In this document: one piece after another, positions 121 to 54,780 of the stretch
Layout: every line of letters begins with the position of its first letter
Position numbering within the stretch: position 1 is the stretch's first letter
Source of the DNA: Heterodontus francisci
Lineage: Eukaryota
Assembly: GCF_036365525.1 (NCBI RefSeq)
Contig: NC_090372.1
Span: 74,758,078-74,822,077, forward strand
DNA length: 64,000 nucleotides
Direction: 5' to 3'
Notes under the pieces: generated by a model
Database searches by the model: none
Seen by the model: only the letters and a program-made list of their open reading frames with translations
Told to the model about the DNA's origin: nothing
Position numbers and translations under genes: made by a program

Positions 121-1072
121 CAGAACTTGTCTCCGAAGCTGTTGTCCACAATTCCCTTCCAAATTGTCCAGTTACTCTACTTAGGTTTTTGGTTTCTTTC
201 CAGCGGATCAGTTGCTTTTATGTGCAATGTTAATAGGTATACTTGTCGGTTTTATATGGAGAAAAGGAAACCCAGTATTTACAACAGATATACAGTCTTG
301 CAACGATGCACCTGGTACGTTGACATTAAAGGGTTATTACAATAAAATATGTTTCTGCATTTCCGTCTGGGGTCCTTTAGGAAACATTTTCTCTAATATT
401 AGGATATGTTATTTTCTTTTGATCTCTGGAGTCTCCTCTAGCAAGTCACAATCCTTGTGCTAAGCAGACAGGCTTTGCACCAGCGGGGGTGTTTTATCAG
501 GAGATTATTGCACTACATTCGTCCCTCGCTCTTAAAGAAAAATCTTTGATATAAGCTGCAAAACTGTCTGCAATAACCATGTTTCCTTTACATTCCAAAA
601 TCGAAACTGTGCGCAAATCTACATGTTCTGGGAAGCGCTTGAGATTACGCTTTGAATGCTCAACTTTTCCTACATCACAATATATCCGAAGCCGAGGTAT
701 CAAAGATTTTACCAGACCTAACGGATGACCTTAAAATGTTGAGAGTTTAAATAAAATTTACACCATTACAATCCACAGCGAGCGGTTGTGTCGAGCAGAA
801 GAGGCGCGTATTATATATAGTACCAACCTTTTTAAAACCATATTTTCCAGGTCTGAAAATTTCCCCACTGAAAATTGGTTACCGCTCTCGATTGCTCTTT
901 GATTACAAGGAAAATAACTCCGATGAAAACTTGAGAAATAAAAATCGAAGGAAGGGGGAGAGTGGAACAAAATGCAATATAATTGAACGATTACCAGTAA
1001 AGTCAACGTTTCATTCATGAATTTCTAGTTCAATAATAACAAAAGAACGCTGTTAACTGAAGCCAAACGCAT
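121..1072 (-). pseudogene. Probable HoxA8 pseudogene remnant (exon-1-like ~1072-713, homeobox-like ~320-121)
   Basis: The minus strand 320-121, read across frameshifts, gives VPG/HRCKTVYLL*ILG FLF-PYKTDK..IAH..LERNQKPK*SNWTIWKG..DNS..DKF. PG8 reads [60 protein letters not shown]. Upstream, one frame from ATG 1072 gives MRLASVNSV (cf. MSSYFVNSL), GKFSDLENM (cf. AKFYGYDNL) and LVLYIIRASS (cf. LVQYPDCKSS). A donor-like G|gtaaaa lies at 713/712. Position is the PG8 slot, 3' of HoxA9. Confidence 0.65.
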
Positions 1073-1754
1073 GCTACGAAAACAGATGCTCCGCAAAACC
1101 TCCAAAATCTTATTTTCTAATAATATGAAACAGATGTCTGGGGAAGCTGATTTTTCACTTCTATTTTGCTCTATATTTCGCCATTTCTCCGGGCTGTAAG
1201 CTTTCTCGCACAGCTGGCCTACGTGCATTGCGACTGCAGGGCCCCAGTTACACATATTTATAAATAAAATACAAATTACAGCATTTTATTGTACACTTTA
1301 ATTACTCGTGAATGTCATTGTCACCGTTAAATAAGACTTTACTAATAAAACATTGACACTAACGCACAAGGTTTATTTAGCAACAATCGCAAATGCTTAT
1401 TTTCTTTTATTACCAGGGATCTAATGATGTATTGGTCACAGCGCCATATTAACAGCTCGAACTGGGGAAAATATAGAAACAAAGAAAACGAAACATTTTT
1501 AACATGAATTAATAAATTATTATGGTTGCAACTTCAAATGTTACCGTATATTTTTTGCAACAAAATACAATTGAATCGTATGGATGGTCAGTAAACCATG
1601 GTGTCTTCATAAATCGAAGAGTTTCAAACTATGTCTTCTCATCCACAACTGGAGAACAAGGAGAATACTAAAGGAAAAACATCTGATAAATATGCAATTG
1701 CATAAAATTTCTCATTTGTGTAGAAAGATGGATAGATCGATGGGTAGGTAGGTT

Positions 1755-1777
1755 GATAGATAGATAGATAGATAGAT

Positions 1778-1838
<61 letters not shown>

Positions 1839-1841
1839 GAT
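1755..1841 (+). repeat. (GATA)n microsatellite
   Basis: About 21 GATA units with two variant units, read directly. Confidence 0.97.
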
Positions 1842-6654: not shown

Positions 6655-6896
6655 TCACCGGTCGTCTTTAGGTCTTTCCTTGTTGATTTTTTTCATCTTC
6701 ATCCTTCTATTCTGAAACCAGATTTTAACTTGCCGTTCAGTAAGGTTAAGGACTCTGGCGACCTCGTATCTGCGGTCTCTTGTGAGGTACATATTAAACA
6801 AGAATTCCTTTTCCAGTTCCAACGTCTGATGTTTGGTGTAAGGACAGCGCTTTTTTCTGGTAGACCTTGCATGCAGCCAGTTGGCGGAAGGGTTAT
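6655..6896 (-). CDS. HOXA9: HoxA9 exon 2 (homeodomain)
   Basis: Acceptor ttcag|AT at 6897/6896. Encodes [47 protein letters not shown]...[11 protein letters not shown]. Stop TGA at 6657-6655. Confidence 0.97.
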
Positions 6897-7566
6897 CTGA
6901 AAATATGAAAGGAAATACATTTGATATATTTTCCCTATTCATGTAGTCAAAATATTGCCACATTCTCAGAATCAAAACACCTTTACAGATAAGAGGGTCA
7001 AGAAGTACTAGCTTAATGAGGCTGGTTGCTACATTTTTATCTGTGTTTTCATAGTATTAAACTCTTAACACGAATCGTCTTGTTCAATGAACAAACTCTA
7101 TGAATAAAGTCCAAAATGAATTAGAAAAAATTAATATTGTGACGCTGTGTTAATCAGACACGTTAATAATCCAAAACAATATGCAGTCTGTCTGTGGTGT
7201 CTATTGTGTGCAATATTTGTTTATCCAGTAGTCTTATCTCCATCACATCCACTTACACCAGATGCACTTGAATTACAGAGTCAGTAATTACTCAGTATCA
7301 CCCCCTTTCTCACCCCCTTTCTCTTCTATAATGAATGGAAATTAGTTCACTGTATACCCACAGTACAGCCGTAAATTTGCAGCATAAACCTTGAACAAAT
7401 GTCTCAAATCTATTTCAGTTATATATAAAAAAAACAATACTGTAAATAGATCTGTGCATTTGTATTTTCGCTATGTAATGAAGAATATGGAAGGAATATA
7501 AAACAGTTCGTATTTATAATCCTTATCTAGAAAAGTAATGCAAATATTTAGGGTTTCCACACTTAC

Positions 7567-8107
7567 TTGGATCCATGTGTAGCTTATCTGCGTTTGACTC
7601 AGTCTCTCCATTATTTTCAGAAAAGGAAACCTCGCTCACACGTTTGTCGGCAGGAGAAGTTCCACAAGTATACTCTGAGAGGGCCAACGTGTGTGTTTCA
7701 AACGTGGTGCAGTCACTTCTGCGGGAAGCTACTGGCTCGGGTTTGATGCCGTAGTGTCGACTGGAAGGTAACCCGGGAAAGGAGAGGGTTCCCGGCATGG
7801 GATCTAGCCAGGAGCGCATGTACCTACCATCGGGCGCGGCGGCAATCGGAGCCTGGTGCATGTAAGGGTGATAAACAGTGGGCATATTGGCAGAGCTCTG
7901 AGCATGAACCGGGCTCCAGGAGGTGCTGAAAACTGTGGCTTTAGACTGGAAGTTGCATGGGGAGAAGTCGGGGTGCTCAGTAAGGGCTGCCTGCCTGGAA
8001 GCCTGAGCCAGTGAACCCGACGCATATCTGGACGACAGCAGATCCTCGTTCTCATGCATTATAAGGGAGTCGACATAATAATTGCTGATAGTCCCTGATG
8101 TCGACAT
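7567..8107 (-). CDS. HOXA9: HoxA9 exon 1
   Basis: MSTSGTISNYYVDS... with PG9 motifs VYHPY, DGRYMRSWL and YGIKPEP. Phase-1 donor A|gtaagt at 7567/7566. Spliced CDS is 783 nt, 260 aa. Confidence 0.97.
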
Positions 8108-13799: not shown

Positions 13800-13883
13800 A
13801 ACTGCAGTAATTCAGGCAGTTTCGTGTTGTAGAGATAGACTTGAGCCCCAACAACATGAAACTACCTAAATCACACGCCAGTT
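13800..13883 (-). ncRNA. MIR196B: mir-196 precursor (HoxA-linked, mir-196b locus); mature 5p at 13868-13847
   Basis: The minus strand has TAGGTAGTTTCATGTTGTTGGG, a loop, and the complementary arm ACAACACGAAACTGCCTGAA, closed by AACTG...CAGTT. It lies between HoxA10 and HoxA9 as in other vertebrates. Confidence 0.95.
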
Positions 13884-15654: not shown

Positions 15655-15929
15655 TCATGAAAAGCTGAAGTTAGCTGTAAGCTCCCGAATCCTGTTTTCA
15701 CGGTTCATTTTCTTGAGTTTCATCCTGCGATTTTGAAACCAGATTTTGACCTGTCTGTCAGTCAGGTGGACACTGCGGCTAATCTCTAGGCGACGCTCTC
15801 GAGTCAGGTACATGTTGAAGAGAAACTCTTTCTCCAGCTCCAGGGTCTGATGTTTGGTGTAAGGACATCGTTTTTTTCTACCACTCTTTGCAGTCAACCA
15901 GTTGGCCCCGTTTTCAGCTTTCACCTCCC
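15655..15929 (-). CDS. HOXA10: HoxA10 exon 2 (homeodomain)
   Basis: Acceptor ttactag|GG after a long pyrimidine tract. Encodes [51 protein letters not shown]...[15 protein letters not shown]. Confidence 0.97.
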
Positions 15930-17319
15930 CTAGTAAGTAAAGGGGTGAGAAAGAGAGAAAGAGAGGACGAGAAAGAAAACAGAGAGATAAATAGGGAGAG
16001 ACGGGATAATAGATAAACAGGGAAAAGAGAAGAAAGTTTATCATGTTTCATCATATAATTTTCAATAGAAACCTAATTGTGATAGGTTGGATGCTTTTAT
16101 AAGTATGAAATATATTTAAGTGCCTATGAAATACTTAAATGCTATATCTTCCAATTTTCAATGTTTTGGTTTGAAACCATGGCACTAACAATTTATCTTT
16201 TATCTACAATCTATTTTTGCATATCCATATGGAACGCAAAAATAAGATATTTTCAATTACTTTATGAGTTGAACGGGTTTGTGAAATGTAGTGCTACATG
16301 ATGTTAAAGTGAGCTGTAGTTGCATTTAAACTGAAGACGAAATTAGTTTGAAAAACTCTATTTAGATGCTTAAATATATTTTAAAACGATTGTTATGTAC
16401 TTGGGGTGACACTGTCTGGTTTGATTTTATTCGACAAGAATCTCGCACATTTTCCCTTTTAGTATGCTTGATGACGGGCTCAGTACATAGTTATCCACTG
16501 AAAGAGAAATTTTACTGCAATTATCGGTCAAATTCAATATTTTGCTTAGCACCAGTAGGCGTGTCTTCCCCTCTGGTATCATTCCCAACTTTTTTCAGCC
16601 ATGTTTCATACCAAACAAAAATCTATGTTTATCTATTTCATTCGTCAGAGGAAATTAAGCAAAGTTTTTTGAATACGCAAACAAATCCAATTGAGCAGAT
16701 TGAAGTATGGAATCTTCGCTGGAATGTTTTAAGATCGTTGCCTTTTTAACACTTCATTGTTTCATTTTATTTGAAATAACTTTATAAAATGTTTTCATCG
16801 GATGTTCGTTAAGGTTAAGACTGACATTTTCCACAGAATGTCAGTCTTTCTATTGTGACACCTCCATGTAGCTGATCACCTGGATTTCAGACATAGCAAA
16901 AACTAACTAACGAATAAAACTGATGTATAACTCCAAATTTTGATTGTTTTTCTAGACAGATAAGTAATAATTCTGCCCTGGTCTAATACTATTAAATATC
17001 TTAAAGCAAAAGATGACAGTGTCACCTTTTAGCGTTTAGAAAACTTTTTTTCTTTTTTGCTCGAAAAGCGCGCTAGAACATAAAACATCACAGGGTTCCT
17101 TTGAGTATTATTTATTGGCTGTCTTCTGTTTACTTTGGACCCTGTGTGCAAATATGTCCTTCTATGCGGTACACTTAAATAACTGCAGAAAGGATTCGTG
17201 GTTTGTAACTTATCTGACAAGTTTAGAATGTGGCTACAATTGACTCTGGAGCGTGGGCTCGTGCTATAAACTATAGCAGGCATTAATTTTTACAGCATAG
17301 CTCACGCCCAAAAATAAAA

Positions 17320-17333
17320 AGTTCACAAGGTCA
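17320..17333 (+). promoter_or_regulatory. DR2 nuclear-receptor element (RARE-like) in the HoxA10 intron
   Basis: AGTTCA-CA-AGGTCA: two consensus half-sites with a 2-nt spacer. Confidence 0.55.
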
Positions 17334-17434
17334 GAATAAAACTCTCTTTGTTACGCTTGTTGGCTGTACCTGCCACGTCTACCCGTTTCTGAGTGCTGGC
17401 TATATAAATTCCCCTCTGCCTCTTATTTACCTAC

Positions 17435-18194
17435 CTTTTGTTTCTTTCTCAGGAGAGTTTTTGTTGCTTTCTGAAGGGACTGGAGATGACTCTTCGTTCG
17501 CTGAAGAAGCCGCAGCTTCTGCTTCTTCTCTTTCCGAACTGCAGGTTAAATGACCAGGGGATGTCCCTTCACTTCCTTTTCTCCCCAACTCAGTCGGGGT
17601 CGAAGCTGAAGAAGGGGGTGTTCCGAAACGGATCTGGGACTGGGGCACGAATGGAGAGGCCCCAACTTGCCCCGTGTTGCTATAAAGTGTCTGTTTGGAT
17701 GTCGGATAGGCTTGGGACAGACGGAAATAGCCGGGGACAGGAACCCCGCCGCTAGTAGTAGTGTCATTATTGGAGCACGATTCTGATGTCAGCCTTGGGA
17801 ACGTGGAAAGATCTGTTGCTGCTGCACTTTTGGGACATTTCTCAGAATCATATAAACAATATGCATTTTCTTCTTTGATATTCTGGGGGAAGGAGCATGT
17901 TGCTACTTGCTGGGTTGCAGGTTGCTCCATGCGACAAGACCTGGGGGGATCAGACCAGACTTCCATCCCGCTCATGTAAGGATGAGAAGTCAGGACCATA
18001 CTCTGAGAGTTGTTCTCGCTGCGTTTGCTCAGAGATGGGAAAAGTCCACAGTTCTGCGTGCCGTAAGACAGCTCAGAGGCAGGCGGCAGGTACACGCTGC
18101 TGTTAGGGTAATAGGTTCCTTCCCCGCCACGGCCCACGCTGATCAGAGAATCTACTAAAAAGGAGTTTGCAGACGGGCTGTCTGAGCATGACAT
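17435..18194 (-). CDS. HOXA10: HoxA10 exon 1
   Basis: MSCSDSPSANSFLVDSLIS...NIKEE..YCLYD...VPVPGYFRLSQAY. Phase-1 donor G|gtaggt at 17435/17434. Spliced CDS is 1035 nt, 344 aa. Confidence 0.97.
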
Positions 18195-31448: not shown

Positions 31449-33683
31449 CGCTTGCTTGGGGTCCCCTAGCGCAAGAATAGCTTGCATTCGCACAGCTAAA
31501 CATGGTCCTTAGATGCTGCTGCCTCTTTGAAGCTGATCCGCGGAGTAAAAATTTGGAAACGTAAGCTGACGTGGAAATGTATCTCCATACATCGCAGGGA
31601 CAAGCCAGTCATGTGACCAGATGCCTGGAGAAATTGACATGCATCACTTTGGATTCCCCCCTCGCACCAGGAGCGCAAAGCTCTTCATATCTGAGCTCTG
31701 CACATTTCTAAAGAGGGAAAGGAAAGCTCGAATAATACTGTGAAAGTATTCAACCTTCACACCAGAGACGCATTTGGCACATTTACTTCACGTCGCTCTA
31801 ACAAGCTGACTTGAAGGGAGGATGGAAATAACAGTTAATGATTTCCGCAGTGGAAATATATCAAAAACAGTTTATTTTCTAGAAAGAGCTGGTTTCGACC
31901 TGTCTCATACATATTTGTTCTGCTGGAATATTGCGGGAATATTCGGCATTTTTATTGGCAAATAATAATTATCTTTGCTTTCTCTTTTTTGCCATTTTAA
32001 TAAAAGAAAACTGTGTATCATACCTATTTCGCCTGCACAGAATTTGTAAAATTGCTGATGAATATTAAGCAAGACTCTACTAAAAAAATCCTTACCGAAC
32101 TATATAACGGTGAGAGTGCAATCTTTAAATGGCTAAAACATATTTTATGTAAAATGATCTCCCTATCTTCGCTAAAAAGAACATGAGAGCACACAATGAT
32201 CTATAGACCCCACAGAGACTTGGGGAGGCAAAGTTAGACCGTCCACAAGTTCGACATGGACGTAGGTTTGTTTATATTTTTGTGAGTGTATCCAAATTGA
32301 TATTAGATTATTTATCCTATAAAAATTGAATCCGTAGAAATTTGCCGAATGTGAGAGGTGAAGAAGAGTTTTTTTCCTAAGATTGTTATTTTGCCTCTGT
32401 TTTATGGACAAGCGGGCATGGTCACGTTCAACTCCACAATCCTCGCCCTATCAGCAAAATTATATCAATCAGTTATCCGCTTCGCTGGATTTCGAGAAAT
32501 ATTAGCGTAAAAAATGCAATGCGCAGCCCAATTTCACATTTCAGACAGAATTTTTGTGAATATATTAATCAAGAGAGAACACTTGCCGTCATGGGAAACG
32601 TTTAGGATGAAACACACAAACGCGAACAAAAGCGGATAAAAAGAATGCTGTTTTATTTGACATTGGCCGTGGCTACATTTTTTCCATATTTCCATAAAAT
32701 GTTACCTAGGACAACCGAATAAACAACAGGCTGAGTTTTAGTGCAAATTGAGATGTTTTTAATAGTTTTAGTTTAGCGAGAGTTATATTCATTAAAGAAT
32801 GTCTAATAAAATGCATTTTATTTCGGTACACTACCTCCGTGTAAGAATTTCAATGATTTAACTACATGAGAGTTTGAAAATCATGGGATGAATTCTGGTG
32901 TTGTTGAAAAGAATGGGACTGTAGAAAAGAGTTGAAGTTAAACTTTGCCTTAGATTTTGTCACATATTAGCTTTTTGCTGTTCCAAAAACAACTGCGCAG
33001 TGCCAAAACAAACAGGTTTTTCTGAGGAAAAGGACCTTTGCCATCAACATTTGCCAGAAAGACCTTCTATTTAAATTAAATTCCATGCACTAAAAAAAAC
33101 TCTGTACTAGAAACCGTGTTAGTAGCAAGTTGACAATTTCATCTTGTTTTTCTAATCGCTTCGTTATGATAAATGCACACCAATGATATGAAAAGTCTGC
33201 AAAATACCTGTGTCTTGTTAATTTCTAGCCTGCTGTAACTGGATAATTCCATCGCTTTAAAAGTAAGACATATAACATAATAATTTTAGATACTGAAAAC
33301 GTCGAGATTATTAATATAAATATTTTAGAATAAGGCGTTGTAATATTCAATATAAAGACTATTGATGAAGTTCAACCACTGTTTATTACACTTACCTTTA
33401 CGATTTACTTCACAACACTAAAAAAATGTCAAGTCTTGATGGAAAATAAAGTTATTTGTATTAAACAGAATTATACAGGGAAGCCATGATATGCTAATGG
33501 CTGCAAATTTGAATGTTTAAAAATAAGATATAAATCATATAATGTACAATGATTTAAAAACTGAATAGGATTGACTCGTAATCGGGTATATTTAGTAATC
33601 CACGTATTCAAAATTACTTAAGTGCGACATAGAATTTAAAGGTTTTACGCTTTATGAACAGAAAGGAAATCCGATAAGACAGT

Positions 33684-33877
33684 GGCACCATCTGTCGTTG
33701 CATGAATGGGCAAATTCCGGCACATGTACAGCGTTCTTTATAATATAATTAAATACAGAACGTCTATGAGAACCGAAAGCGGTTTAGTTTGACCTGCGGT
33801 TTTAACAGCAGCTTTGACAACCAGCTTCACTAGATCCCCGGAATAGACATTATAGCTAAAGACGCCACCTACATGGA
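33684..33877 (-). promoter_or_regulatory. Pair of candidate CTCF sites between HoxA11 and HoxA13
   Basis: Minus strand CAACGACAGATGGTGCC (~33700-33684) and TCCATGTAGGTGGCGTC (33877-33861). Confidence 0.4.
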
Positions 33878-36139
33878 ATCCCTGACATTCCCAGCTAACG
33901 TGAGCAATCAGGCGTCCCCAAAAAGAGACAAGGACGCGGCTTTGTCTGATAAAAGTCGGGCTGAGTATTAGAAGAGTAAGTTTTTAACTGTACATTGCGC
34001 GTCTTTACTATGTGATCAAAATCTAGTGTATTGTCCCTTTTCTTTCTCTACAAAAGGGGTGGATTCTCCGTAAATACGTGGCTGTGTGTTTTAGCGCAGT
34101 TTGCCTATGTTGCTTCCAAGAAAATAACAGAGGGAACGTTGCAGCTATTTAATAATCTTCCGAACGAAAAGGGAAGCTGGCGATTGTGTTTCCGATTAAA
34201 TAAAAGCCGAAAAATGCGCCAAGATCTATTCACTACCTTATTCGCTTCGCCATTTTCAATCCATCTGTATTTCCCAATTATCACACTTCTATTGAAGTAT
34301 CGCTCTTTTACAATGACTTTCAATTACAGATTCTAGATCAAATTGACTCATGTCGTCATTTTTAGTCTTTAGTCGTATAGTCATTTCCAAGAATGTAGTC
34401 ATGCAAAGCTAAAGAGATGCTTCTAAAAATTAAATATACCTACCTCGTTGATGTCATATCAGACATACACTGCACGCATTATGTTGATATTCGATGTGAA
34501 TAAAATGTAATGTAAATACAGAAGTTTAAGGAGATCAGTGAATTATTGCGGCGCAAGCCATTTTCCTGCAGGAGACCAACTCAACGGGAGGGCTGAGACC
34601 CGGATGAAGCTGAATTTCTTCACACTGATGTGCACTTCGAAGCTTCATCGCAGATATAATAAGAAACGAAATCGGATTTAAAACTCTATTGTCAAAGTTC
34701 GAAAATAAAAACAAGCACCAAAATAAGATTGTGGTAAGGCAAAGTCTTCGCTTGAGTTATTTGACGGCTTTGCAGTTTAAGTGCGCACAGCCTGCTTAAC
34801 ATTGAACTTCAACTTTGGAAAATGCTGCACAAGTATAAGAAATATACTTTTTAAAGATGAGAGTTATATTATGTGAAATTAAATTTAAGTCATAATGACA
34901 ATGGTTTAAATCAAATGTTCATCTAGAAAAAAGATAAACATTTGGTCGAGTCCTGTCGATATTTGGAAAGTCGTTCGTGTCATTAGTTGTAATATAATTT
35001 CATTCTAAAATATTACTATCTACGGGATAAAAATTGATAACTATATTTTCGGCCAGTACACTTTTATTGTTACCCTAAAGCTAATCAATACGGCTTGAAA
35101 ACGGCGAGCCATGTTTCCTTTACAGATTTTGCAGGCAATTGTATTCGCATTAGTTCTTTCAGTTCTTCCCACGAATTACATTGCACGTTAGTTGTCACTG
35201 TGCAAATGAAGTCACATATGTCTTAATTGCCTTCAACCGCAAAAAGCACTTTACTACACTACGCCCCAAACTAATTTTCTAACGTGGAATGGTTTAACTC
35301 ATTACTCATTATCAATTTCTTTCTAGACGAGAAAATATTGTAAATGAGAAGTGAAAGTAAAGATTTCCTGATCCAGCCTCCTACACATAATATGAAATAT
35401 TCAACTGGAGCTATTGTTAGACAGTAGCTGCTTCCTTTGAACAGAATCCTTTCACATTATTGTAAGACACTTATTCATTCCAAAATTAGCTGACTTTGAA
35501 ATTGGCACATTCATATTATTTCGCAGCAATACTATCCCACATTTTAAGTCAATGGTGTGAAATGAAATAAATTGAAAAATAAAATTATTTCTTGGTGGTG
35601 GGGTGGGGGGCGGTGGCGAGGGTCTACAATGACTTTGTTTTACTCTGATTACCAAAAAAATCATGACTCTCAAAATCTAAACTGCAAATTATTGGCCTCA
35701 TAAGAGTGCGTCTCTTTTAACGAAAGTCCACGTTGTTTTTATGTGTGTCGTTCCTTTGCCGCCTTGTTCAGTAACACTGGCAATGACAAGACAACGGTTC
35801 CTGTCGGCCATTTTTATGCCGAGTGTCTCGGAAATATTGCAGAAAGTTAATTCAACAAAAAGTACTTCAAGAAACGAGAACTTTATTAAATGAAGGATGC
35901 CATGAATTGATAAAGAACATCTTCTAAGATTTTAAAAAAAACCCAAGTAATAATAGGCCCCCGCCTCCAAGTGGATTAGTCTTGAAGATGAAAACTAAGC
36001 CAGAGTTGTATCCTATTATTCCATTGTTACTTTTTTTTTTGCTGAGCCACAGTAGATTTATTAAAATAATAGTGAAATAAGAGATTATAAATAGACCATT
36101 GTGGCCTACAAATAAGAAAAATGAATATTTTAATCTTGT

Positions 36140-37510
36140 TTACTAATATTATTCTTGCGCCCTATGAAAACCAGGGTAGCACAGTAATATCCACGCAGGG
36201 ATTGGCAATGAAACCTGAAAGTAACGCAGTTTGTAAATTATAACTGAGGATTTCACACTTTGGAGTCTCTTACGAAGGCGTTTTTTTCTTCTCCGAAATC
36301 ATGCACTGTTCTATGAGCGTATGCGTGTATCTGTAGTATGTGCAGTTCGGAATGTATCATTTTTTATGATAGACATGTAGCACTTTAAATTCCGCTTTCT
36401 TTCTCACCTCTGCATATTTTCTCAATAAAATCATTGAAACTCTTTCGCGCGCATTTTATTATAATGCTTTATACAATTACTTCGATATATTCTACAATCT
36501 CGAGCCCAAATATGTTAAGCTGCCCAATAAGTCACACAAAAAAACGCTTCGCCGGTGGTTTTCCAACACTGCATCGCAAAATAAATGAGACGTTAATTAA
36601 TATTGAAACTTCCCTTTTGAATAATTTAGGCATAATCGTCATAATATCGGTGTTATATTTACAAATACACATGAACAATGTTTCACTTCCCAGCATTGAT
36701 TTAATTGCGTGCGAGTTTATTTTGAACCAAACATTCATTATCACTTTTATATGAAATGCCAATTTGAAGAGGAATGGGGAGTTCATGTCATGCTTTTGAA
36801 CTTGGCGTGCATGATAATAAAAAAAATGGAGCAATGCCATTTGCTGTCGCAGCAACTTTTCAGGTCTGGGTTTAGTACTTCAATGATGGGATTTAAAAAA
36901 CATAAAAATAAAAAGGTTAAGCAAACCCATTAATAGTTCAATGGTAATTTTCGACAGTGTTTCCTTTCACGAAAACATACAATAAAGAAATATTGTATGT
37001 TAGCTGGCGCCTCGTCTAATGCAATATTAAAGTCGGGCCAAGTAGTCATGCAGATTGAAATAGCTAGAAGGGACGCAGTTTCACTTGAACTGGCCGGATT
37101 TGAACTTGAAAGATCCTTACTTTGAACTTGGCTAGAGGAACACAGCTCGGAATTTCTGAATTTTCTTCATTAAAAGGCGCTCCACTCACCTCCACTTGTA
37201 GCAAAAACTGGAACATGAGCATATGAACTATTTTCTTGCACTTGTCGGATGGATTCTTCCAGCTTTCTAATCCTCAATCTTTCAATAAATAGCGGGTACT
37301 GCAAAATGCACAGATGCGGTGAGTTCGGAGCATTTCCTGAATCCTTTTATCTATCCAGTGCCCAGTTGGTGTGCCCATATGAACACAGAAGCTGTTGACT
37401 TCTAACTGCACCGAATCTTTGGCAGGTTAGCATATTCCAAGCCAGGGGTGATGCAGTTGTCTCCCAGACGAACCTTCAGGACCCACACACGTCGCATGTG
37501 CGCTCACTAA
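36140..37510 (-). pseudogene. Candidate highly decayed HoxA12 remnant (exon-2-like 36330-~36140; exon-1-like ~37510-37120)
   Basis: A phase-1 acceptor ctacag|AT at 36331/36330 is in frame with S*NSA*FRRRKKR (cf. PG12 PWYPINSRSRKKR). Then GAAATCCTCAGTTATAATTTACAAAC (cf. EFLVNEFIN) and VLPWF follow. Upstream, NCITPGLEYANL at 37458-37423 resembles the PG12 N-terminal N..SP..FYFANL. Position is the PG12 slot. Confidence 0.45.
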
Positions 37511-38737
37511 ACTTACAATGTGACAAAATGACTTTCAACTGAAAGAACATATGGAAGAACATTGAAATATCGAAGTCGTGTGAAATGTCAACAACAAGAC
37601 TGACCGCGATTGTGTGTACCAAAGAGACGGAGTAAACTATGTTTTAATGAAAGCTCCAATTAATGAATTGCATGCGCATTCACTTTGATGCTTTATTAAT
37701 GAGTTATGTAAATTACTTTGGATGACAGTGGCTCTGAATGCGGTTATGTATATTTCTGATTGTAGGTCTTAAATTCTTCGAGTTCAATGGAAAAAGTTCA
37801 TATCGCAATATGCCGCTTCATTGTTTTAAGAGTAAGTTTTCACACCATTGTGAACGAATTTACCATTAGAACTTTTATCTGTTTACATCCGTCCATGTCG
37901 AGATACAAGGCTTAAATTGTACTGCTAATTCATTAACTATTTGAAACCACCCGTATTAACAAAGGAGTGAGGACCATATTACATTACGAATACAGATACA
38001 TCAATAACACCTCAGAATAATAAATGTAGTTGTACAAATCTTCGAAGTTGATTATACTGAAGAACATTTCGGCCTGTATTATTTCGGTAAACCATTAAAC
38101 AACAACACTGCACGAATGGAGGATTGAGCTATATGACCATGCAACAACATAATTCACAGCGCTTCAAAAATTAATAACCGGTCGCAGAAATTACATCTAC
38201 TCTAATAAAGATTTAAAAATCTTATATTTTTGCGTTTCGTGATACAGAATCATTACTTTAATCTCAGACTTGCATTTGGAGATGCAAAACCAATAATATA
38301 ATGGGCTGTAATGATTTATTTTATGTCCAACATAGAATATTCCTTAAATGAAACAGTTGGACTTGGAATTTTAAGGAAGTCTTGCATTATATATCATGTA
38401 AAATGTATTACGGTACATTAAAGGATATTTTTGGATTTGTGAATTTAGAGTATTAAGTGGAACTATACCGACATAATTGCATAGTTAACTAGAATATACT
38501 TAAGAGCGTTTGTAAATACTCAATTTTATTTGTTTCATCTATATCAACATTTTTTTTAAATCCGCAAAATGAAATATACTTCCCTGCGAAATGCACTAAA
38601 ATCTATTAGATAGTACTTTAGTCACCCCGCATGTCAGTTTGTAAGCGGGACACTAGTTGGTCAAATATAAGTGAAATACTACACACCCAAAATGTCCTGC
38701 GACATAAACTGCCCCAGACGTTATTAGCTTAAAATCT

Positions 38738-38753
38738 TATATATATATATACA

Positions 38754-38786
<33 letters not shown>

Positions 38787-38820
38787 GTCTAGATACACAC
38801 AGATATATGTATATATATAT
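38738..38820 (+). repeat. Compound (TA)n/(TG)n/(TATG)n microsatellite
   Basis: Read directly. Confidence 0.9.
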
Positions 38821-41800
38821 AGCAACATGAAATAACCCCGTTTATTATATATAATACATAAACATGGAAGATGCCAGTTTATTATATGTCTATAGCAAAT
38901 AAACAGGTATATTGCATATTGATATGCATCCATTGATAGGCACACACAGTACTAATAACCGCAAATATTATGCTTTGGCACGTCGTCTGTAAATTCAATA
39001 TTTGAGGTTGGATAAATGGCCTTGTTTGTGCACTATATATTTTCATTTTTTAAAAGTTCAATTCCGGTTTTATGCAATATATTGGACACATAAACGACTA
39101 AACTAGGTCTCCAATGCCACAAGTGCTCATATATATTTAATTTTTAAAGGATTCCATTTTTCGATCCATGTTGTCGGCAATGTAACCTAGTATACGCTAT
39201 TATTGTACTGTATTCTAAATGAAAGTAAAGCAACGAGTCAATTATGAGTGTACATCCAGGCAGATCTGATTTAACTAGAACCAGTTATATTACAACAATA
39301 TGGCTCCAGTTTATTTTTCATTTATAAAAACAAGTTCGACGCGGCTCAATAGTATTTGGTTACAAATTATAAAGTAAGTTCAACAATTGTATAGTCAGTC
39401 TGGCGAAATTTTATTTTAAATACTTATCGGTAGCCTTTTCAAAAATATGTATATACTGTTCATTGGGGGCGGGAGTTGGGTGGTGGGATGGGGACGGAGG
39501 ACAGCGGGGGGGGGGGGGGGGGGGTGAGGGGGGTGTGGGGGGGGGGTGCGGTTGGTGGTGGGATAGTATTAAACATCCACTGCAAGCAGTCCGTGGTTCT
39601 TCCTTGAATTCATTTTAGGCACTTTTGACGAAATATTCTTTTGTAATGATGCACACTAAACATTAGATTCACATTTTATGGTTCTTATTATTGAGAATAT
39701 TAGGTAATGGATAAATTTACTGTATGGTACGACATTAGTAAAAAACACAAAAAAATAAAGCGCATTTTGTAGTGCACATATTCAGTATCTCATACAATGA
39801 ATGATGTACGGCCTTGGAATTGATAGTGTGGCAGCAGCCGCGTGAAAAGAAACAAAATAAATCAAATAAACTGCTTTTAACAAGATAAATAAACACATCG
39901 ACTGCAAATAGAACAGTCGCTCCAAGTTAATCTAATTTGGATATAGACACAATGATGCAAATATTTGTATATTTTAAAAAAAAGTAGAGATAAGACTAGC
40001 AAAATGAAATTCAAAACTACATTGAAGACATATCCAGATCTTAATACGCCTTCGGTTCTCGACAATGGCTTCTTCGGGTTTTTTTCTAATGCTCATAGAA
40101 CGATAGACGATGTTATATAGATGATACAGAGCATAAAATCCTTAAAGTTCGATTAGTAATGCTTTGTTTCGTGTATTTCTCACGAAATGTTAAGTCTTTT
40201 GTGGCATTCTAAAGTAAAATGGGCGAGCTTCTCCGTGAGGACTGCACAGGAGACCGTTCCTGAGGCTATTTGGCAACACAAATTCAATGATCCAAAATGC
40301 ATTATCGTTTTTACAATAAACCAGGTTAATCGCTCGTGATCGCCACTGTAACTCATAAAAGTTACATTTATTTACTGTAAATAGAGATTCACAGTTCAGG
40401 ATTAATCCATTGGCGCAGAACGATTGGAAGAATTGAAAGCTAAATAATTATGTTCTGGAATGTCAGTTGCAACTGATTGCATTTTCTGCTTTGCGGTGCT
40501 TTTATAACAAAGATCACATTGACAATATGATTAATTTTACTTCAACCTTTATCTTGCAATGAAAGAATAACAAGAACCACCTCAATAATCAGAAATGTGC
40601 CATTGACTGTTCGATAGCTACGTTGAGCCTTTTACCTTTAGCACATTTTACTTAAAGCCCAAGAACGACAAAAAAAGGCCGAAAAAAGGTTTTGCACTTG
40701 ATTAATTCTTTGGGAAACATTGATAATTGTCAGTTCCATCTGTAAAATGATCTGTTTTGTTCGCACCAATCAACAATGGTTACCCATAACTAATAAAACA
40801 TTAAGTAGCTATTTCTTCCTCATCAGCGTAAATAGAAATCTTGTGATATATCTAAACTCAGTGCATCTAGAAAACAACTATAAGCGGATTATTAGACAAG
40901 CCTTGATCAGAGAGAATGCGGGTGGTTGGTTCTCTTCAAGTATTTTCCAACAAATATTGAGTTGGATTTTACAAGAGGATGCTGTGATTGGTTCGAATGA
41001 GTCATGTGATGAATGCAGAATTTTATAATCCCACAACATTTTGGCAAATCAGCTTTCATTTTCCTATAGGCAACTGTTGGATGCGGCTTAGCTTGTATTA
41101 AGAAATGACACAAGCGGAGATAAATGAATTATTTTAGCTTGGGCATTACACATTTAACATTGATCGGAATTAAATGTAACAAAAATCCATTGTTCATGTA
41201 AGCAAGCCTGCTCAGCTTAGTCGCAACTAATAATGGTAAAGGGTGCATTTCTATAATGTCCACTTTAAAAATAAAAAACAGTTTGCATGTCTATGGAATT
41301 CCTCTGTAATTCGGTATTTTTAAATGAAAATTTGAGGTGAAAAGCTACAATTTTTAGTTGATGCAAAGGTAAAAATGCAGATAAAAGTGTGTTTCTACTT
41401 TCTATAGAAAAAAAAGCTTATGGAATTTCACATATTATCCACAAGTTCGATTTGAAATGAATGTGGAGTGCATACTTAATAATTTTATCAGCACAATTCT
41501 TAAAATCTCGTATTATTTGTAACTAAATTATATAACACCACTGAAAAAAAACAGCTAAGCGATTGCTTTAGTTTTGTGAAATTACATGTTAAAATATACA
41601 ACTACTTAATCAGACACGGTGTACAGGAGTATGAAAGTGAATTGATAAACGTGGCCAACAGATTAGCAGAAGCAGATGGAAAGAGATCCAGATAAAGACA
41701 GATAGAGTGATCCAAGGGTGAATGTGGACAGACACGTTGTAGACTGATCACCATCATTAAAATAAAACTATGCATTTCACAAATGTGCTAGCGATCAAGT

Positions 41801-42197
41801 TTAGCTGATCCGTTTGGTTACTCTTTCGTTAGTTATTTTACAGCGGCTGAAATTTAAACTACCCGTGAGAAATAATTTACAAAACGCGTTACCATAGCCT
41901 TTTCCTTGATTCTATACCTTCGCGCTTGTGATTCTAGTACAATACCAAAAGCTTGGTAATTGTTTTTGGAGGTTTTATTGTTTATAATAGTGAATCATTC
42001 CTGGCGAGTCTTTGAAATTCGAACCCTTTAAATAATTTCTCTGAGCGTTTCCACAATTTAAACGATGCATAATTAGTTGTTAGTATTACTGACCTACATC
42101 TGACGGTCCTAGTTCATCCTCTGCTCGTTTACTGTTGAAACAATTACGTTTGGTTGCTCGTTTGCTCGAAGCCCGTTTAAATGAATATCCGCAGATT

Positions 42198-42214
42198 AAC
42201 AGTAGATGGCGCAA
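42198..42214 (+). promoter_or_regulatory. Candidate CTCF site 3' of HoxA13
   Basis: AACAGTAGATGGCGCAA is a near match to CCAGTAGATGGCGC. Confidence 0.5.
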
Positions 42215-43865
42215 TTGCTCTACCTTTACACTTCATGACTATTCATGAGCAGTTAATAGTCAAGGTCAAAGACTATCAGTTTTCGTCAAGGTCAAGGTTT
42301 AAGCCCCCCCCCCCCCCCCCCACCCCCCCCCACCCCACCACCACCCCACTCCTAACGCCCTGCCTCCATATTAAAACCAAAGGCAGACCGTATATTCCCA
42401 ATCAGAATATGGACAAAATATATTGCTTTTAAACTTTCAGCATATTTTAATACACGCGTAGGGATCCACTTCCAAAAAGCGTTTCTATCATGATAATCGT
42501 GATGCTTTTCCTGGTAGTCATGTTTTCGATTTGAAGCAGTAGGGAATATTCATGGATACCTTTTGATGTCAGCAAATTGCTAGATTATTTCTAGAAAATC
42601 TTTAGTACGAAAGTATGGTTTTAAGGTATTTAAACCCCTAAACAAATGGCCTGGTTAACATCAGGAATAAATCTAGCTGGCCCATATTTCTTTGCATTTT
42701 TGTTTTAAAAGCTGTTAGCTGGCGTCATGTTTCTTAACAAAAAATTCGACGCTGTTGTTTATGAAGATATTTTATTCGTGAAATAATTTGTTGTAATGCA
42801 TGTAATTCACTAGCTGAAAAAAGACAATAGGGTATACAGATTAAACAGCTGCATAATAGTAATGCCAGACATTTTAATTTCATGATTATCATTCGTGGTT
42901 TAATTTTGTAACTATTATTGGTATATATTAACTAAGTAGGAGGGTGCATGCAGATAAAACAATGCGTTATTTAAAAAAAAATACAATTGCACGCAGATGT
43001 TGTCATCTTTAGGAAGGAAGCTGTGCGCCTTAAGTCTGCGTGGAGGCTAATGCTATGTGAAGTGGGTAATATAACAAGCAGACAGAAAAGACTTAATATT
43101 TAGTTCATTTACACGGGAGGAGATGGTTTCATGATTGCAGACAGATCTTAATTCTACTCTGTAGAAAATGGCAATCTACTTTGCTATTTAATTACGAAAG
43201 GCGCGGATGCTCCTAAATATATACATAAGACGAAATGTAGAGTGCTAGAATAGTAGGTATTTAATTGTCAATATACATTGCTATTTAGAATATATTCTTC
43301 ATTCTACCTGTACATTAATATCTTTAGAGATAGCGCATCCCATCCAAAGAAAATGTAGTGCGTAAACATTTTATTATACATTTCACGATATATCCCATGG
43401 TTTACCTGAGGAAAAATTAGCATGCACTCTAGTTTTTTGTTAACCAGAACATTCTCCAGCAATACACATTTTTAGGTGCGTTGATGATGTTTATGTGAAG
43501 GCAATGTATAAATCAAATTGGTACTCTTATTCCTTTGAAGTGATATATTTTATATGCAGTAAACAATTAATTCTGTATGTTTGCTACATTTAAAAATTGC
43601 AACCCTTTAGATTCTTAATTAATGGACTTGACTTATTTTTGGCGAATATTAGTTTGCTTTAACAAAACCTTTATACAATGTCTTTCCTAGATATTTACTA
43701 GTGTGTTTATGCTTTTTTTTTAAATAAGAAAAAGCAATGAGCAGGCAGAAAGAAAAAAAATCTAGCATCAAGAAAAGGAGCTGTGGTGGGTTTTTTTTCT
43801 CCAGGCTGAGATCAGTTATTTTTAAAATTTTCAAAAGAAGTCCGAACGTTTCTGGAATTGTCGCA

Positions 43866-44110
43866 CTAGCTGTTACTTTTCAGTTTAGTAAGAACTTTCT
43901 TTTCTTTGACTCGTCTGTTTTGAAACCAAATAGTGACTTGTCTCTCAGAGAGGTTTGTTGATGCCGATATCCTCCTTCGTTTGTCCTTGGTAATGAATTT
44001 ATTGGTTGCATATTCCCGCTCAAGTTCTTTCAACTGCACTTTAGTGTAAGGCACTCTTTTCTTTCTCCCACGCCGAAAAGAGCTCGCATCGGAAGGATGC
44101 GAAACGACGT
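43866..44110 (-). CDS. HOXA13: HoxA13 exon 2 (homeodomain)
   Basis: Acceptor ttcacag|AC. Encodes [72 protein letters not shown]. Stop TAG at 43868-43866. Confidence 0.97.
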
Positions 44111-44511
44111 CTGTGAAGAGAAAAACACACCTTACCATCCATGGCATTTAGCAGCAAATAAAAGTTTAAAACCGGCAGTGTCGCCGGAGTCAAGTTCAAG
44201 ATTGCACCATGGAGATGTTATATCGACTGTACATTTTGTAATAAATTATATATCAGAAAATATAATGTTGAAAAATGCGTGAGAATTGTGGTGATTATGA
44301 AAAATTATGCAAGTTAGTATTTAGCTAGTGCACTAAACATTGAAGTTTATGATAATATAGAAGTACTTGTCTTAGAGAATTATGCATATAATTTCCTAAT
44401 ATAATCTATTTTATATACTATCCAGCTACCCATATGTATTTACACATCAGAATGTCTTGTCCCCTTTATTGCACTAGTTTCTCGTGTTAATTGTGTTTTA
44501 TCTATACTTAC

Positions 44512-45160
44512 CTGGCAGGCTCGATTTCCAGAGGTGGGTAGCTTGCGGTTGCTCTTTCGAACAGCAGACTTGACCATTCCACCCATTGGTAATTGCCCAG
44601 GGCTGGTAGCTCTCCATGGGTAATAATGTGTCGTGTCTTGGTTCCCCCGGAGCGCTGATGGTGGGAACCACAGGTACGTCCAAATAGCTGGGCATCGGTT
44701 GGTACGGCCCCGCGTAACCTTGGTAGAATGCGAACTCCTTGGCTCTGGAGGTGAATTCCTCGCCGGCGGACGTGTCCATATATTTGTCGGCAGGATAGCC
44801 AGACAAGGTGGAGGGCTGAGCGCAGGACTTAATGCTGCTATGGTGGCTCATTCGGCAGGGATAGTAACTGCTCCCAAAGTATCCATAAGGCAGGGCAGCA
44901 CTGGACGAAGTTTGAGCAGCAGGACAAGGACTACACTGTTTGACAGGTTCAGCAATACCAGACGCTGGCACTTCACTCGACGTGTAGGCAGAGCTGGGAG
45001 CTAGGGATGCTGGATGGGCCATCAAATTCCTGCATTGATTTGCTGTGAAGTTCCCTCCTGAAAATCCATCCATGTTTTTATTAATTTCATCCAAACTATT
45101 GTCGTAGACGAACATCACAGTGTCGATCCAGCGGGGATGAAGTATCACGGACGCTGTCAT
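44512..45160 (-). CDS. HOXA13: HoxA13 exon 1
   Basis: [21 protein letters not shown]...QCRNLMAHP...[13 protein letters not shown]...[14 protein letters not shown]. Phase-1 donor G|gtaagt at 44512/44511. Spliced CDS is 894 nt, 297 aa. Confidence 0.97.
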
Positions 45161-51658: not shown

Positions 51659-51802
51659 TCAAAAATATTTACATAAAAAGATATTGAAATGTAAAGGTCC
51701 GGTTTCAGCACTGCAGCCCACAACTAAAATATTCATTCCAGTTTGCTGGCGGCAAATGAGCCTTTTCTGTTGCTAATACTGAGCTTGAAACCAAATTTTT
51801 AC
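51659..51802 (-). pseudogene. HOXA14: HoxA14 pseudogene exon 3 (3' part of the split homeobox)
   Basis: An intact acceptor ttctctttatag|GTA is followed by VKIWFQAQY*QQKRL (cf. PG14 VKIWFQNQRQKEKKL). In-frame TAG at 51775-51773. Confidence 0.9.
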
Positions 51803-51900
51803 CTATAAAGAGAAAATGTTACAGTAGTGGACTCCCATGAAAAAAAGCTCATTATTTATTTGCGTCCGCCTGGAACATTTTTCATTGCGAATCTCCTAGC

Positions 51901-52085
51901 CTGTTGTTCTGGTAGCCCTAGTTTTGCAACAATTATTTTTGCAGTTGTCATATTTCAATCGCCAGAAAGCAAGTTTCCTCGAAAGCGATGTTGTGCAGTC
52001 TGGGGTTTTCTATGATAAATTATTTTCTTCCTCTGTGTGTACTGAGCTCGTGGGTGGGCAGACCAGGGTGAATGAACACTCGGGG
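51901..52085 (-). pseudogene. HOXA14: HoxA14 pseudogene exon 2 (5' part of the split homeobox)
   Basis: Phase-1 acceptor tttacag|CC. Reads QRKKIIYHRKPQTAQ / IAFEETCFLAIEI*Q / IIVAKLGLPEQQ (cf. PG14 RKKRIPYSK.QI.ELE.AFEENRFLTPEIR.NIS.KLGLTERQ), with two frameshifts and one stop. The donor has decayed to GCTAGG. The 98-nt intron falls between Q44 and V45. Confidence 0.9.
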
Positions 52086-53035
52086 CTGTAAACGAATAAT
52101 ATCCCATTATTCGATTCAACTATTTTCATCATATTATTAATTATGTACAACTTTAGTAATATATGAAGAAAACGTCCCTCGTTTTGACTAAATGCATATA
52201 ACATTCCATAGTGATACTTTCTACATTATAAAACCCCAAAGGCATTAAGTATGTACAATGAATGCAAGTAACATTTTCCAGTACACAAATGTATGTGCAG
52301 ATATCAGCCTTGTGATAACTTCAATTTATGATCACAAACCATGAACCTTCTGTAAACTACTGCTACCCAAAACTCTACAAATGGGTTTAAATTCATTTAA
52401 GACAAGTATCTCTTCAAGTCGACACCAATGCACGCATGCACGAAGATGCAATCATTATACGAAGTTAAATATGTATTCCTCTTTAAACGACAAATGCCAA
52501 AGTTCATGGTTTGTAGGCATATAATATCAATAGATTTAAAGACATATGAATCAACACTAACTGGAAAACAAGAAAAAATATATTGTTGCACTGCAATATA
52601 ACTGCTGTCCACACTATATGAACCCAACGTTTCTTACATTTAACAAGTACAATGTCAAAGCTAAATATTAAAGTTGTTTTACTATAATACATTCTAAATG
52701 CTTGCAATTGCGAGACGTGAATTTATTTTCACTCCTTAACAAGACATATCATTTATTTGTTCTCCTCTAACGCCGCATCGTTTGCATGGGAAGTATTTTC
52801 TATTGTACTCTGTAACTCTATTGCATATACCTGTTACGTGCCAAATAATAAGTGATATATTTAATACTAAATGACTATTTTACAAAAACTGTTTTCTGTC
52901 GGTGTTGTTTACATCTATGAAGATAAGCTAGATATAAGTGTTCCAAATCAAGGTGTCTTGGTAGTGTTTGCTGTTTATTGCTTTGAATTTTCATCCCTAA
53001 TATTTTATTCCTTATTCTTATCAAACATACAGTGT

Positions 53036-53096
53036 CATGAAGGCACAGAAGGAGGCCGTTCGGCACATTGAGTTTATGCCCGCTCTATGTAGAGCA
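53036..53096 (-). mobile_element. Short CR1-type LINE/SINE 3' tail fragment
   Basis: Minus strand ...ATGTGCCGAACGGCCTCCTTCTGTGCCTTCATGAC resembles the CR1/HER1 3' terminal stem-loop. Confidence 0.6.
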
Positions 53097-54315
53097 GATA
53101 TGTGAAAACAATTTGCTGAAAGGTATTATTTCCTCAACATTTTTCTATTTTGTTTCTAGGAATGTATTTTAATTAAAATGTACTCACCACGTTAACAAAC
53201 CATTAATCCTGGGGGGACCGACATATTGTATATTTTCAATTAATGGGCTATTTTCTTATTTAAGGTGCATTTCAACAAGCAACAGGAAATTCTATTTATA
53301 CGCGAATATTATTCCTTTAAAATCAATTCACCGGATGCTTAGGAACAATTTACACTATGACACTGAATATTTAAACAAACGATCTCCTCTGTGACTGGCT
53401 TCGGCTATCTGTATAAACATATCGAAACACACATCTGCACATTTTCGTTCACAACTGCCTCGGAAAGTCTTCAAAGACTTTTATAAGTTTCAGCGATAAA
53501 GGTAGCATAAAAGGATGATCGGTTAATTTTCTCTTTCTCCAGTCTGTAAGAAAAATGTTTCCCGAGCAGTAACAAACATCTCGTCACCCTCCCAGTGAAC
53601 TGTTTAAAAATTATGTCATACATTATGTCGTAAAATGATAATCTGTTAATATTGTTTAGGGCACTTGAGTGGAGCATAGTATCAACATAAAGTTTTACTG
53701 TCGCTTTTAGACTGAAGCGTTTCTTTTTGTCAATTTATGATGCCCAAATGCAACACACTGTCAACATTATACCACACACGATCTTAATCGTGAACTGGGT
53801 TCTCCGTTGCTTCACGGAGGTAGAGACTGCAACATTCAGCAGATATTTAAAATGAAGTGTTCCACACCCAAAATTAACAACGTATACACGAGATGACTCG
53901 CATCAGGCAGTACAGACATTAAAAACTCAACTTACATTATATTTGATATTATGCAAAGGAGAGATAAGGCTATGAGAAGGCGCAAAATTATTGTACAGTT
54001 TTTTCCTGGCTATTTTATGGATGTGGAATTATGTTAGTATATATTATGTTAGTATGAAATTGATCTGTATATATTTCTGCAAATTATCACCCCAGGGATT
54101 TCATTTTGTCGGTTTAGTCAACTATCTGTTTATCGAATCATTCTAAATTATGCTTAGCATAATAACGTTTTGATTGCAAATGTTATAAAATTGATCAGAA
54201 ATTGATCCCGTCACTTCAACTAGTTCTGTTAGCAAGCTCCAACAGACTTAAGGAACGAGGGTTATTAATTACTCCTTGGCTACCCTCACGTCTGGTTCAT
54301 TCGAATCCGTCTTAC

Positions 54316-54780
54316 TTTGACCAGTGAGATTAAAGGGTCGTGGGAATGCTATAGCTTCCTGATAAGCACGGCTGACCCCTACATGTTTAGCCCATACACA
54401 GGTCGGAAAAGGAGTTTTCGGATAAAATGACAACTCATAACTACACAATGACGAAACTGCAGAAAACGGGATCACAACCGGGGGGAATCAGTGCTAAACT
54501 TGAAACGCGCGCGGGAAAGGACTATGTCTGACATTCAGTGATGAAGGAGAAAAAATAATGTACATATATTCCAGATTACCAGGCGAGATCATTTCTGTAT
54601 TTGCCCTTGTAGTGACACAGCTTTCCCACTAGATGTCTGCAGAGTTAATTGAAGATATTCAAGAATATTATTATTCCTTGAATTTTGAGTCTTGTCTCCA
54701 AAGATTGCGGTCATTGAGTGATCTTGGTACTGAATCTGGCTGTATCTAGGTAAACAGCAGCTATGTGTCGAACGCAATCT
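54316..54780 (-). pseudogene. HOXA14: Candidate HoxA14 pseudogene exon 1 (5' limit uncertain)
   Basis: SPGNLE at 54586-54569 (cf. PG13 PGYLD) and ECQT*SFP at 54536-54513 (cf. YQPW). An open frame then runs to a phase-1 donor CAA A|gtaaga at 54316/54315, which matches the phase-1 acceptor at 52085. Confidence 0.5.

Follow-up and report, generated by a model that had tools for sequence, protein, structure and literature searches.

The DNA analysed here, referred to as the window, is a stretch of 64,000 nucleotides from Heterodontus francisci (NC_090372.1, positions 74,758,078 to 74,822,077) that contains the posterior HoxA cluster on its minus strand. HoxA9 (6658..8107; exon 1 at 8107-7565, exon 2 at 6897-6658), HoxA10 (15658..18194), HoxA11 (29413..31445) and HoxA13 (43872..45160) are intact, all on the minus strand, as is mir-196 (13804..13877; Rfam RF00256, 76.7 bits); HoxA7 is positioned immediately beyond the window. 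HoxD14 of this shark has the identical sequence to a protein listed under Heterodontus francisci. Two minus-strand non-coding elements have paralogous counterparts in other clusters. The one at 4387..4500 matches the element between HoxB9 and HoxB8 (74.6% over 118 nt, E 2.8e-12) and is the upstream anchor of the HoxA8 slot; the one at 42200..42303 matches the D13-D12 spacer and, weakly, the region after B13. A six-frame motif search of the window detected no fifth homeobox. Frameshift-tolerant protein alignment of the D8, B8, D12 and C12 exons gave only noise outside the true genes, and plain DNA alignment was at noise level. Peaks obtained with a fixed-background PSSM in the GC-rich stretch at 60.5-61.6 kb were false, and the local background was therefore used from then on.

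A HoxA14 pseudogene with three exons, a split homeobox, stops and frameshifts extends from about 54680 to 51730, 6.6 kb upstream of the HoxA13 start and on the minus strand, which is the cluster strand. Exon 1 (54200..54680, ends approximate) comprises a part that aligns to lungfish Hox14 with two stops (54592-54281) and a part, in a different frame, that resembles the D14 N-terminus (54663-54601). Exon 2 (51901..52085) is identical to lungfish Hox14 in 29 of 63 columns and carries two frameshifts and one stop. The 98-nt intron that follows (51803..51900) splits the homeobox behind ERQ-like codons, where PG14 genes, D14 among them, have theirs; its donor is GC and its acceptor AG is retained. 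Exon 3 (51731..51802) reads KIWFQAQY* where KIWFQNQRQ is expected, so that the PG14 helix-3 motif WFQNQR has become WFQAQY*, with the Q at the diagnostic place retained and one or more stops in each of the three exons. With a decay profile built from D14 of the same genome, the homeobox exons scored 41.5-42.0 bits, a score reached in 0/30 null windows (best null score 12.7 in 574 kb) and in 0/28 windows of a further null set. Exon 1 scored 112 against lungfish Hox14, with identity in 40 of 108 columns (best null, 58). D14 exon 1, used as a query on this true exon, was equalled in 9/30 null windows, which indicates that a paralogous query alone can miss a real exon. The strong A14 remnant announced in an earlier sequence-only reading of this DNA was thus confirmed.

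Nine Hox14 proteins were compared with the remnant. Lungfish Hox14 (XP_043922143.1, Protopterus annectens), assigned to HoxA14 according to PMC3038165, was the top match to exons 1 and 2; the lungfish protein is intact and has WFQNQR, whereas the shark copy is broken. Lungfish Hox14 scored 112, 88 and 62 on exons 1, 2 and 3, and four shark-group D14 proteins scored 43-48, 45-54 and 48-53, respectively. On these pairwise scores for exons 1 and 2, the remnant is nearer to HoxA14 than to HoxD14. Hox14 pseudogenes already known from cartilaginous fishes also lie between HoxA13 and the Evx side on the cluster strand, with three exons, a split homeobox and inactivating lesions; the present one does not differ in kind, except that here all three exons are mapped and lungfish Hox14 is the best match. 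As HoxA14 pseudogenes of cartilaginous fishes are a published kind, A14 by itself adds little. The bowfin and gar hoxd14 pseudogenes are, as described in PMC8423624, likewise dead Hox14 genes in the collinear slot with a split homeobox; they differ in belonging to the D cluster, and the bowfin copy also in keeping WFQNQR and in being transcribed. One published view runs the other way: according to Mulley 2009 (PMC2746220), neither horn shark nor skate has Hoxa14, a verdict that concerned Hoxa14 as a gene and was drawn from the order of conserved elements.

A weak PG8-like trace was found at about 666-16 (minus strand), at the place expected from synteny. It lies on the cluster strand, with the B9-B8 paralogous element on one side and the PG7 promoter on the other, and the distance from its end to that promoter is about 0.85 kb, compared with 1.07 kb for D8 and 1.49 kb for B8. 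The candidate 3' part of exon 1 (367..666) contains QQEADLVQYPD-like and MFPWMRPQ-like stretches at the DNA level. A former intron of 152 nt may have occupied 215..366 (223 nt in D8, 384 in B8). The candidate exon 2 (16..214) has a helix-3-like word, L*NRRRK*, at 56-33 and is interrupted by a poly-G run. The helix-3 N codon lies 164 nt past an AG (161 nt in D8), and the word occurs with up to four mismatches twice in 509 kb of antisense null sequence and twice on the minus strand of the window. This best register places helix 3 beyond the span of the sequence-only reading, which started at 121; a register ending at 121 is one of two incompatible alignments with similar scores, one with the 152-nt intron and the other with nearly none. 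Like HoxB8 and HoxD8 in this genome, the candidate trace has its motifs in gene order, on the cluster strand and at a comparable distance from the PG7 promoter; unlike these genes, it has no open frame, shows no more than 45-55% gapped DNA identity and is statistically marginal. Early horn shark cluster papers may mention an A8 pseudogene.

The trace scored 7.9 bits, or 13.4 with its low-complexity tail, and its p value was about 0.02-0.2 depending on the null. Over the whole slot the score was equalled in 14/108 and 15/73 real-sequence null windows (13-21%), and in shuffles it was equalled 7-9 times in 300 (3/300 with the tail). When the slot was narrowed by synteny it was equalled in 9/260 to 17/379 windows; this narrow slot was defined with the candidate already in view, and more than one setting for decay and gaps was used. 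Masking of low complexity abolished the signal (112/204 null windows equal, 74/204 with whole-gene scoring), whole-gene (glocal) scoring did not raise the score, and the exon 1 part scored alone gave 4.5 bits, equalled in 34/204 null windows. Among 10 group profiles PG8 was the top one in the slot (7.9 versus at most 5.4 bits), with a profile that held no HoxC8, as none was found in the HoxC stretch examined. A multi-species PG8 profile of 37 sequences brought no improvement. Over 101-380, PG8 homeoboxes ranked 11th and lower among 32, and protein-level alignments were noise (28-29). Alleles of other organisms moved the score weakly towards PG8, with 14 to 94 of 200 random sets doing as well (four organisms, scattered alleles). 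A tandem copy of A7 was rejected as the source, PG7 scoring 3.4-4.1 bits, as was a repeat, since the stretch matches itself alone in the genome, in a search that cannot prove rarity. In simulated decay of a PG8 gene, 0.7 substitutions per site left a median of 15.1 bits and 0.9 left 5.1, so that 8 bits is compatible with a real but old A8 fossil. We give the trace about an even chance of being real, and the moderate support previously ascribed to it was too generous.

Non-coding conserved blocks cover parts of 275..531 at this site. Four of ten other organisms were compared: every one of them conserves 301-369, three conserve 464-531 or 491-531, and one conserves 275-429. In their contigs the level of conservation is about 87-90% for 301-369 and 464-531; the comparison concerned one stretch with 5-6 of 30 bins covered, and parts of 1-1000 without cover were not taken as absence. 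The 301-369 block is not coding-like in itself. The conservation lends some support, at this site, to the earlier suggestion that dead exons overlap regulatory sequence; a non-coding function acquired later probably maintains part of the A8 site.

Since no coordinates had been given for the proposed A12 remnant, the whole A11-A13 interval was scanned, and neither exon 1 nor the homeobox of a PG12 gene was detected in the slot (31480..43840). The best PG12 score there was 4.6 bits, equalled by 28/43 null windows and 21/100 shuffles. D12, C12 and a 44-sequence PG12 profile gave no signal (28/43, 69/81 and 74/81 null windows equal). A weak PG12 match that recurred at about 39560-39430 was rejected as a poly-C run. 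D12 and C12 are present in the same genome, and B12, like A12, is missing. HoxA and HoxB are sister clusters under the tree [(A,B),(C,D)], as cited by Kuraku 2011 (PMC5054437); under this tree the loss of PG12 probably predates HoxA as a separate cluster, and the lack of PG12 in HoxB makes parsimony argue against a PG12 gene in the ancestral HoxA. The proposal that the ancestral HoxA held PG12 lacks sequence support. The non-detection of A12 would also be expected from a real but older fossil.

Taken together, a three-exon A14 pseudogene, a possible and much older dead A8 and no A12 are best explained, with somewhat better than even confidence, by deaths in place at different times, the later losses being the readable ones. 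A14 would have died after sharks and bony fishes split, as lungfish and coelacanth keep A14. A8 would have died after the A/B duplication and before living jawed vertebrates diverged, early enough to decay to about the detection limit. PG12 would have been lost a single time, in the cluster ancestral to HoxA and HoxB, in which case a HoxA12 possibly never existed. That remnants can still be read would be due solely to the slow change of sharks and to the scarcity of tolerated insertions and deletions in Hox clusters. That genes 8, 12 and 14 all persist as collinear fossils recording the order of their loss, as the sequence-only reading proposed, is very improbable: A14 is real, A8 is marginal, the A11-A13 interval (12.4 kb) is long enough for a decayed gene and the method would not see a fossil decayed beyond about 0.8 substitutions per site, but the PG12 signal is nil with every profile used, its recurring best match is poly-C and B12 is missing as well. 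The unbroken 8-14 series lacks support. The ranking of A14 over A8 over A12 was right and the grades were too high; within the series A14 alone is significant, and PG8 matches that rival 7.9 bits occur at non-collinear sites (11.8 bits at +61649, 10.5 at +21023 and 7.4 at -22551). The outcomes that the sequence-only reading had named as refuting have thus largely come about.

These non-collinear matches also count for a less likely but substantial alternative, in which A14 is the sole fossil, A12 is absent and the A8 trace is a chance similarity within a conserved non-coding element beside purine-rich poly-G. The real-sequence nulls (p 0.13-0.2), the effect of masking, the ambiguous register and the non-coding character of 301-369 all fit chance; it would leave to coincidence the correct strand, slot and distance from the PG7 promoter, the first place of PG8 among 10 groups, the hexapeptide-like word and the helix-3-like word that follow gene order and are spaced much as in D8, and the shuffle p of about 0.01-0.03. 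It is also rather unlikely, slightly more so, that the remnants were kept mainly through re-use, either as regulatory DNA or in non-coding transcripts; decay would then tell little of the date of death. The conserved A8-site blocks agree with re-use, as do a PG7 promoter that persists in HoxD without its gene and the transcription of bowfin hoxd14 (PMC8423624); however, non-coding HoxA DNA is highly conserved in general between shark and skate (PMC2746220), so 87-90% need not mean function, and this conservation was seen over 5-6 of 30 bins only. Re-use is compatible with deaths in place at different times.

Ancestral Hox inventories are built by parsimony from surviving genes; fossils in place would show cluster membership and a rough time of death. 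The A12 result keeps an unsupported complete 8-14 series out of the record, and A8 and especially B11, if confirmed, would add fresh cases of loss after the vertebrate genome duplications. In the literature consulted, which leaves out Kim 2000, Chiu 2002, Chiu 2004, Kuraku 2008, Ravi 2009, Powers and Amemiya 2004 and supplements, no pseudogene of HoxA8, HoxA12 or HoxB11 was found.

Outside the window, a search of the 24.8 kb upstream of B13 gave no B14 remnant, and coding remnants of D6 and D7 were likewise not found. A second homeobox-like word in HoxB (KLWFNSRRTK, C33 at about 54348220-54348390) fell short of the null and was not accepted as B12. A significant homeobox remnant of PG11/10 type lies on the cluster strand in the HoxB13-HoxB10 interval and is likely a dead HoxB11. 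It scored 27.9 bits (0/150 shuffles equal, maximum 16.3); in a comparison with 574 kb of null sequence, which peaked at 15.5 bits, it scored 25.6. It is single-copy, and its exon 1 was not found. The top 7 of 32 homeoboxes were the seven PG10 and PG11 genes, D10 being first, and the PG11 profile alignment extended further. In the sister cluster, then, a gene lost after the duplication did leave a fossil, and this one appears fresher than A8, something that simple parsimony would not lead one to expect. Tentatively, fossils may be readable for losses that followed the second genome duplication (A8, B11, A14) and for none of the earlier ones (A12/B12, the D7 coding region). If so, the order of Hox losses and the (A,B)(C,D) pairing would both have direct support from sequence. 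The B11 remnant has decayed as little as A14, and a working HoxB11, a gene missing from the reconstructions consulted, would then have persisted until early sharks or the ancestor of jawed vertebrates.

Four intact homeoboxes (A9, A10, A11 and A13) were recognized by six-frame translation on the minus strand of the window (G000:C2:74758078-74822077), with mir-196 placed between A10 and A9; A7 lies outside, its start about 940 bases before the window begins. For each paralogy group (PG), paralogs from this genome were combined into one nucleotide profile, to which a neutral decay model was applied; remnants of missing genes were then searched for with a frameshift-tolerant forward algorithm that scores against local base composition. 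The comparison clusters (HoxD, HoxB, HoxC and anterior HoxA) came from the same genome; D14, D12, D8, B8, C12 and other posterior genes were extracted, and true Hox exons were masked before the scan. The D14 protein matches one labelled Heterodontus francisci at every residue. Two kinds of null were used, slot-sized antisense windows from the four clusters and block shuffles. A simulation with 25 runs per level marked the detection limit: scored with D8, B8 reached a median of 62.6 bits after a decay of 0.5 substitutions per site, 15.1 bits after 0.7 and 5.1 bits after 0.9. With a fixed background, the GC-rich segment 60500-61650 gave false peaks with every profile.

The HoxA14 remnant is a genuine pseudogene, as the sequence-only reading had proposed. 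Its homeobox exons score 41.5-42.0 bits, equalled in 0/28 and 0/30 null windows, and the homeobox is split: between exon 2 (52085-51901, minus strand) and exon 3 (from 51802, minus strand) lies an intron of 98 nt, in the position typical of PG14. Exon 1 is nearly invisible to the D14 profile (9 of 30 null windows do as well). Hox14 of the lungfish Protopterus annectens (XP_043922143.1), found by profile search, aligns to exon 1 at 54592-54281 with a score of 112 (best null, 58) and 40 of 108 columns identical; its scores on exon 1 and exon 2 exceed those of four D14 proteins from the shark group, which fits orthology of the remnant with HoxA14. The lesions are two stops within the aligned part of exon 1, and two frameshifts and one stop in exon 2; exon 3 reads WFQAQY*. 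This is a fossil of a known kind: two earlier papers describe Hox14 pseudogenes in cartilaginous fish (PMC3707753, PMC3509897), although Mulley 2009 (PMC2746220) held Hoxa14 to be missing from horn shark.

The case for HoxA8 is evenly balanced. In a restricted alignment, D8 exon 1 matches window 666-368, ending with an MFPWMRPQ-like stretch, and two registers can be read downstream. One has FLFNPY-like and NNKDKF-like words at 305-121 and an intron of almost nil, and is probably what had been seen originally; in the other, a 152-nt intron precedes exon 2, which begins at 214, and L*NRRRK* falls at 56-33, 164 nt past an AG (161 in D8). The candidate is correctly placed, since element 4387-4500 has a paralog in the B9-B8 spacer, and the A7 promoter has paralogous elements 1.07 kb past D8 and 1.49 kb past B8. 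PG8 also ranks first among ten groups in this slot, but the statistics do not decide between a fossil and a chance match. The score of 7.9 bits, which rises to 13.4 when the acidic tail is included, was matched in 14/108 and 15/73 real windows (17/108 and 14/73 with the tail), by 7/300, 9/300 and 3/300 shuffles, and in 9/260 or 17/379 windows of 1.5 kb, this last slot being picked after the fact. After low-complexity masking, which cuts a poly-G run inside the candidate, 112/204 and 74/204 null windows were as good. PG8 peaks as good or better occur at the non-collinear positions +61649 and +21023, and null peaks reach 13.1 bits. The stretch is single-copy within reach of the genome search, and the site is conserved at about 87-90% in contigs of four other organisms among ten listed (301-369 plus 464-531 or 275-429); their alleles shift the score slightly and non-significantly toward PG8 (14 to 94/200). 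We give the trace at 666-16 an even chance of being a real A8 fossil. A short repeat is present at 1721-1857, within the A9-A7 interval.

No HoxA12 was found in the A11-A13 interval. For the full gene, D12, C12 and a 44-sequence profile stay at or below 4.6 bits, scores that were matched in 28/43, 69/81 and 74/81 null windows and 21/100 shuffles; in an exon-by-exon PG12 scan of the interval, 38/46 and 39/46 nulls were as good. According to simulation, a PG12 fossil that has decayed by more than about 0.8 substitutions per site would lie beyond the reach of this method. A recurring match near 39500 is a poly-C run, matched by many unrelated profiles. In conclusion, the window holds one known fossil (A14), one open candidate (A8) and one non-finding (A12); the sequence-only reading is partly confirmed as an observation and partly supported in its interpretation, but an unbroken 8-14 series of fossils is not supported.

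D12 and C12 are present in this genome, and A12 and B12 are absent; with the cluster tree [(HoxA,HoxB),(HoxC,HoxD)], cited in a passage of Kuraku 2011 (PMC5054437), a single PG12 loss ahead of the A/B split would be simplest, in which case HoxA12 may never have existed. A8 would have died after the split, since B8 is intact, and A14 last, since lungfish and coelacanth retain it, as stated in part of PMC3038165. The decay order proposed from sequence agrees with this expected order of loss, but only its last step was measured: best-fit decay, including paralog divergence, is 0.4-0.5 for A14, with a flat optimum near 0.8 for the A8 candidate.

The most promising lead came from scanning other empty Hox slots with the same method. 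A PG11/PG10-type homeobox remnant lies on the HoxB cluster strand between B13 and B10 (G000:C33:54370004-54370240, +), 18.8 kb upstream of where B10 starts. With PG11 exon 2 its score is 27.9 bits, equalled in 0/150 shuffles of the 72.6-kb interval (maximum 16.3); the real-sequence null tops out at 15.5 over 574 kb. When 32 homeoboxes were compared with it singly, the seven genes of PG10 and PG11 took the first seven places. It is single-copy in the genome, is preceded by an AG, retains the words YxK, LELERE and INK across frameshifts, and is decayed to a degree similar to the A14 remnant; exon 1 was looked for and not found. Slot and alignment length favour PG11, with PG10 as a possible alternative, and the remnant is likely a HoxB11 pseudogene. 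No report of such a remnant was found in the literature searched; a section of one preprint describes amniote HoxB without B10-B12. A homeobox-like word, KLWFNSRRTK, in the B12 slot between B13 and B11 (L024:8216-8387, on the fetched HoxB stretch) scored below the null and was rejected.

At G000:C7:77551548-77551661, 1.07 kb past D8, HoxD retains a stretch paralogous to the promoter and 5' leader of HoxA7 (67.5% over 114 nt, E 5.6e-8); it runs as far as where the start codon would stand, and no PG7 coding remnant follows it. The HoxC cluster, described in part of an older review as lost in elasmobranchs, is repeat-rich and GC-rich (G000:C51:118195-222529). C6-like, C10, C11, C12 and C13 homeoboxes were seen; the reading frame of C12 is broken in each of its exons, either genuinely or through an assembly error. 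Neither a C8 nor a C9 homeobox was found in the fetched stretch, which itself contains gaps. In the window, a non-coding element at 48160-48250 has 82.6% identity to one upstream of HoxB13. Interspersed repeats (50127-50531, 58394-59889 and 63661-63946) first appear in the stretch from A13 to the A14 pseudogene, with more beyond it; a reverse-transcriptase frame (RVT_1) was observed at 58674-59309. A split-type homeobox about 120 kb past A13 (G000:C2:74922100, + strand) is by position probably Evx1.
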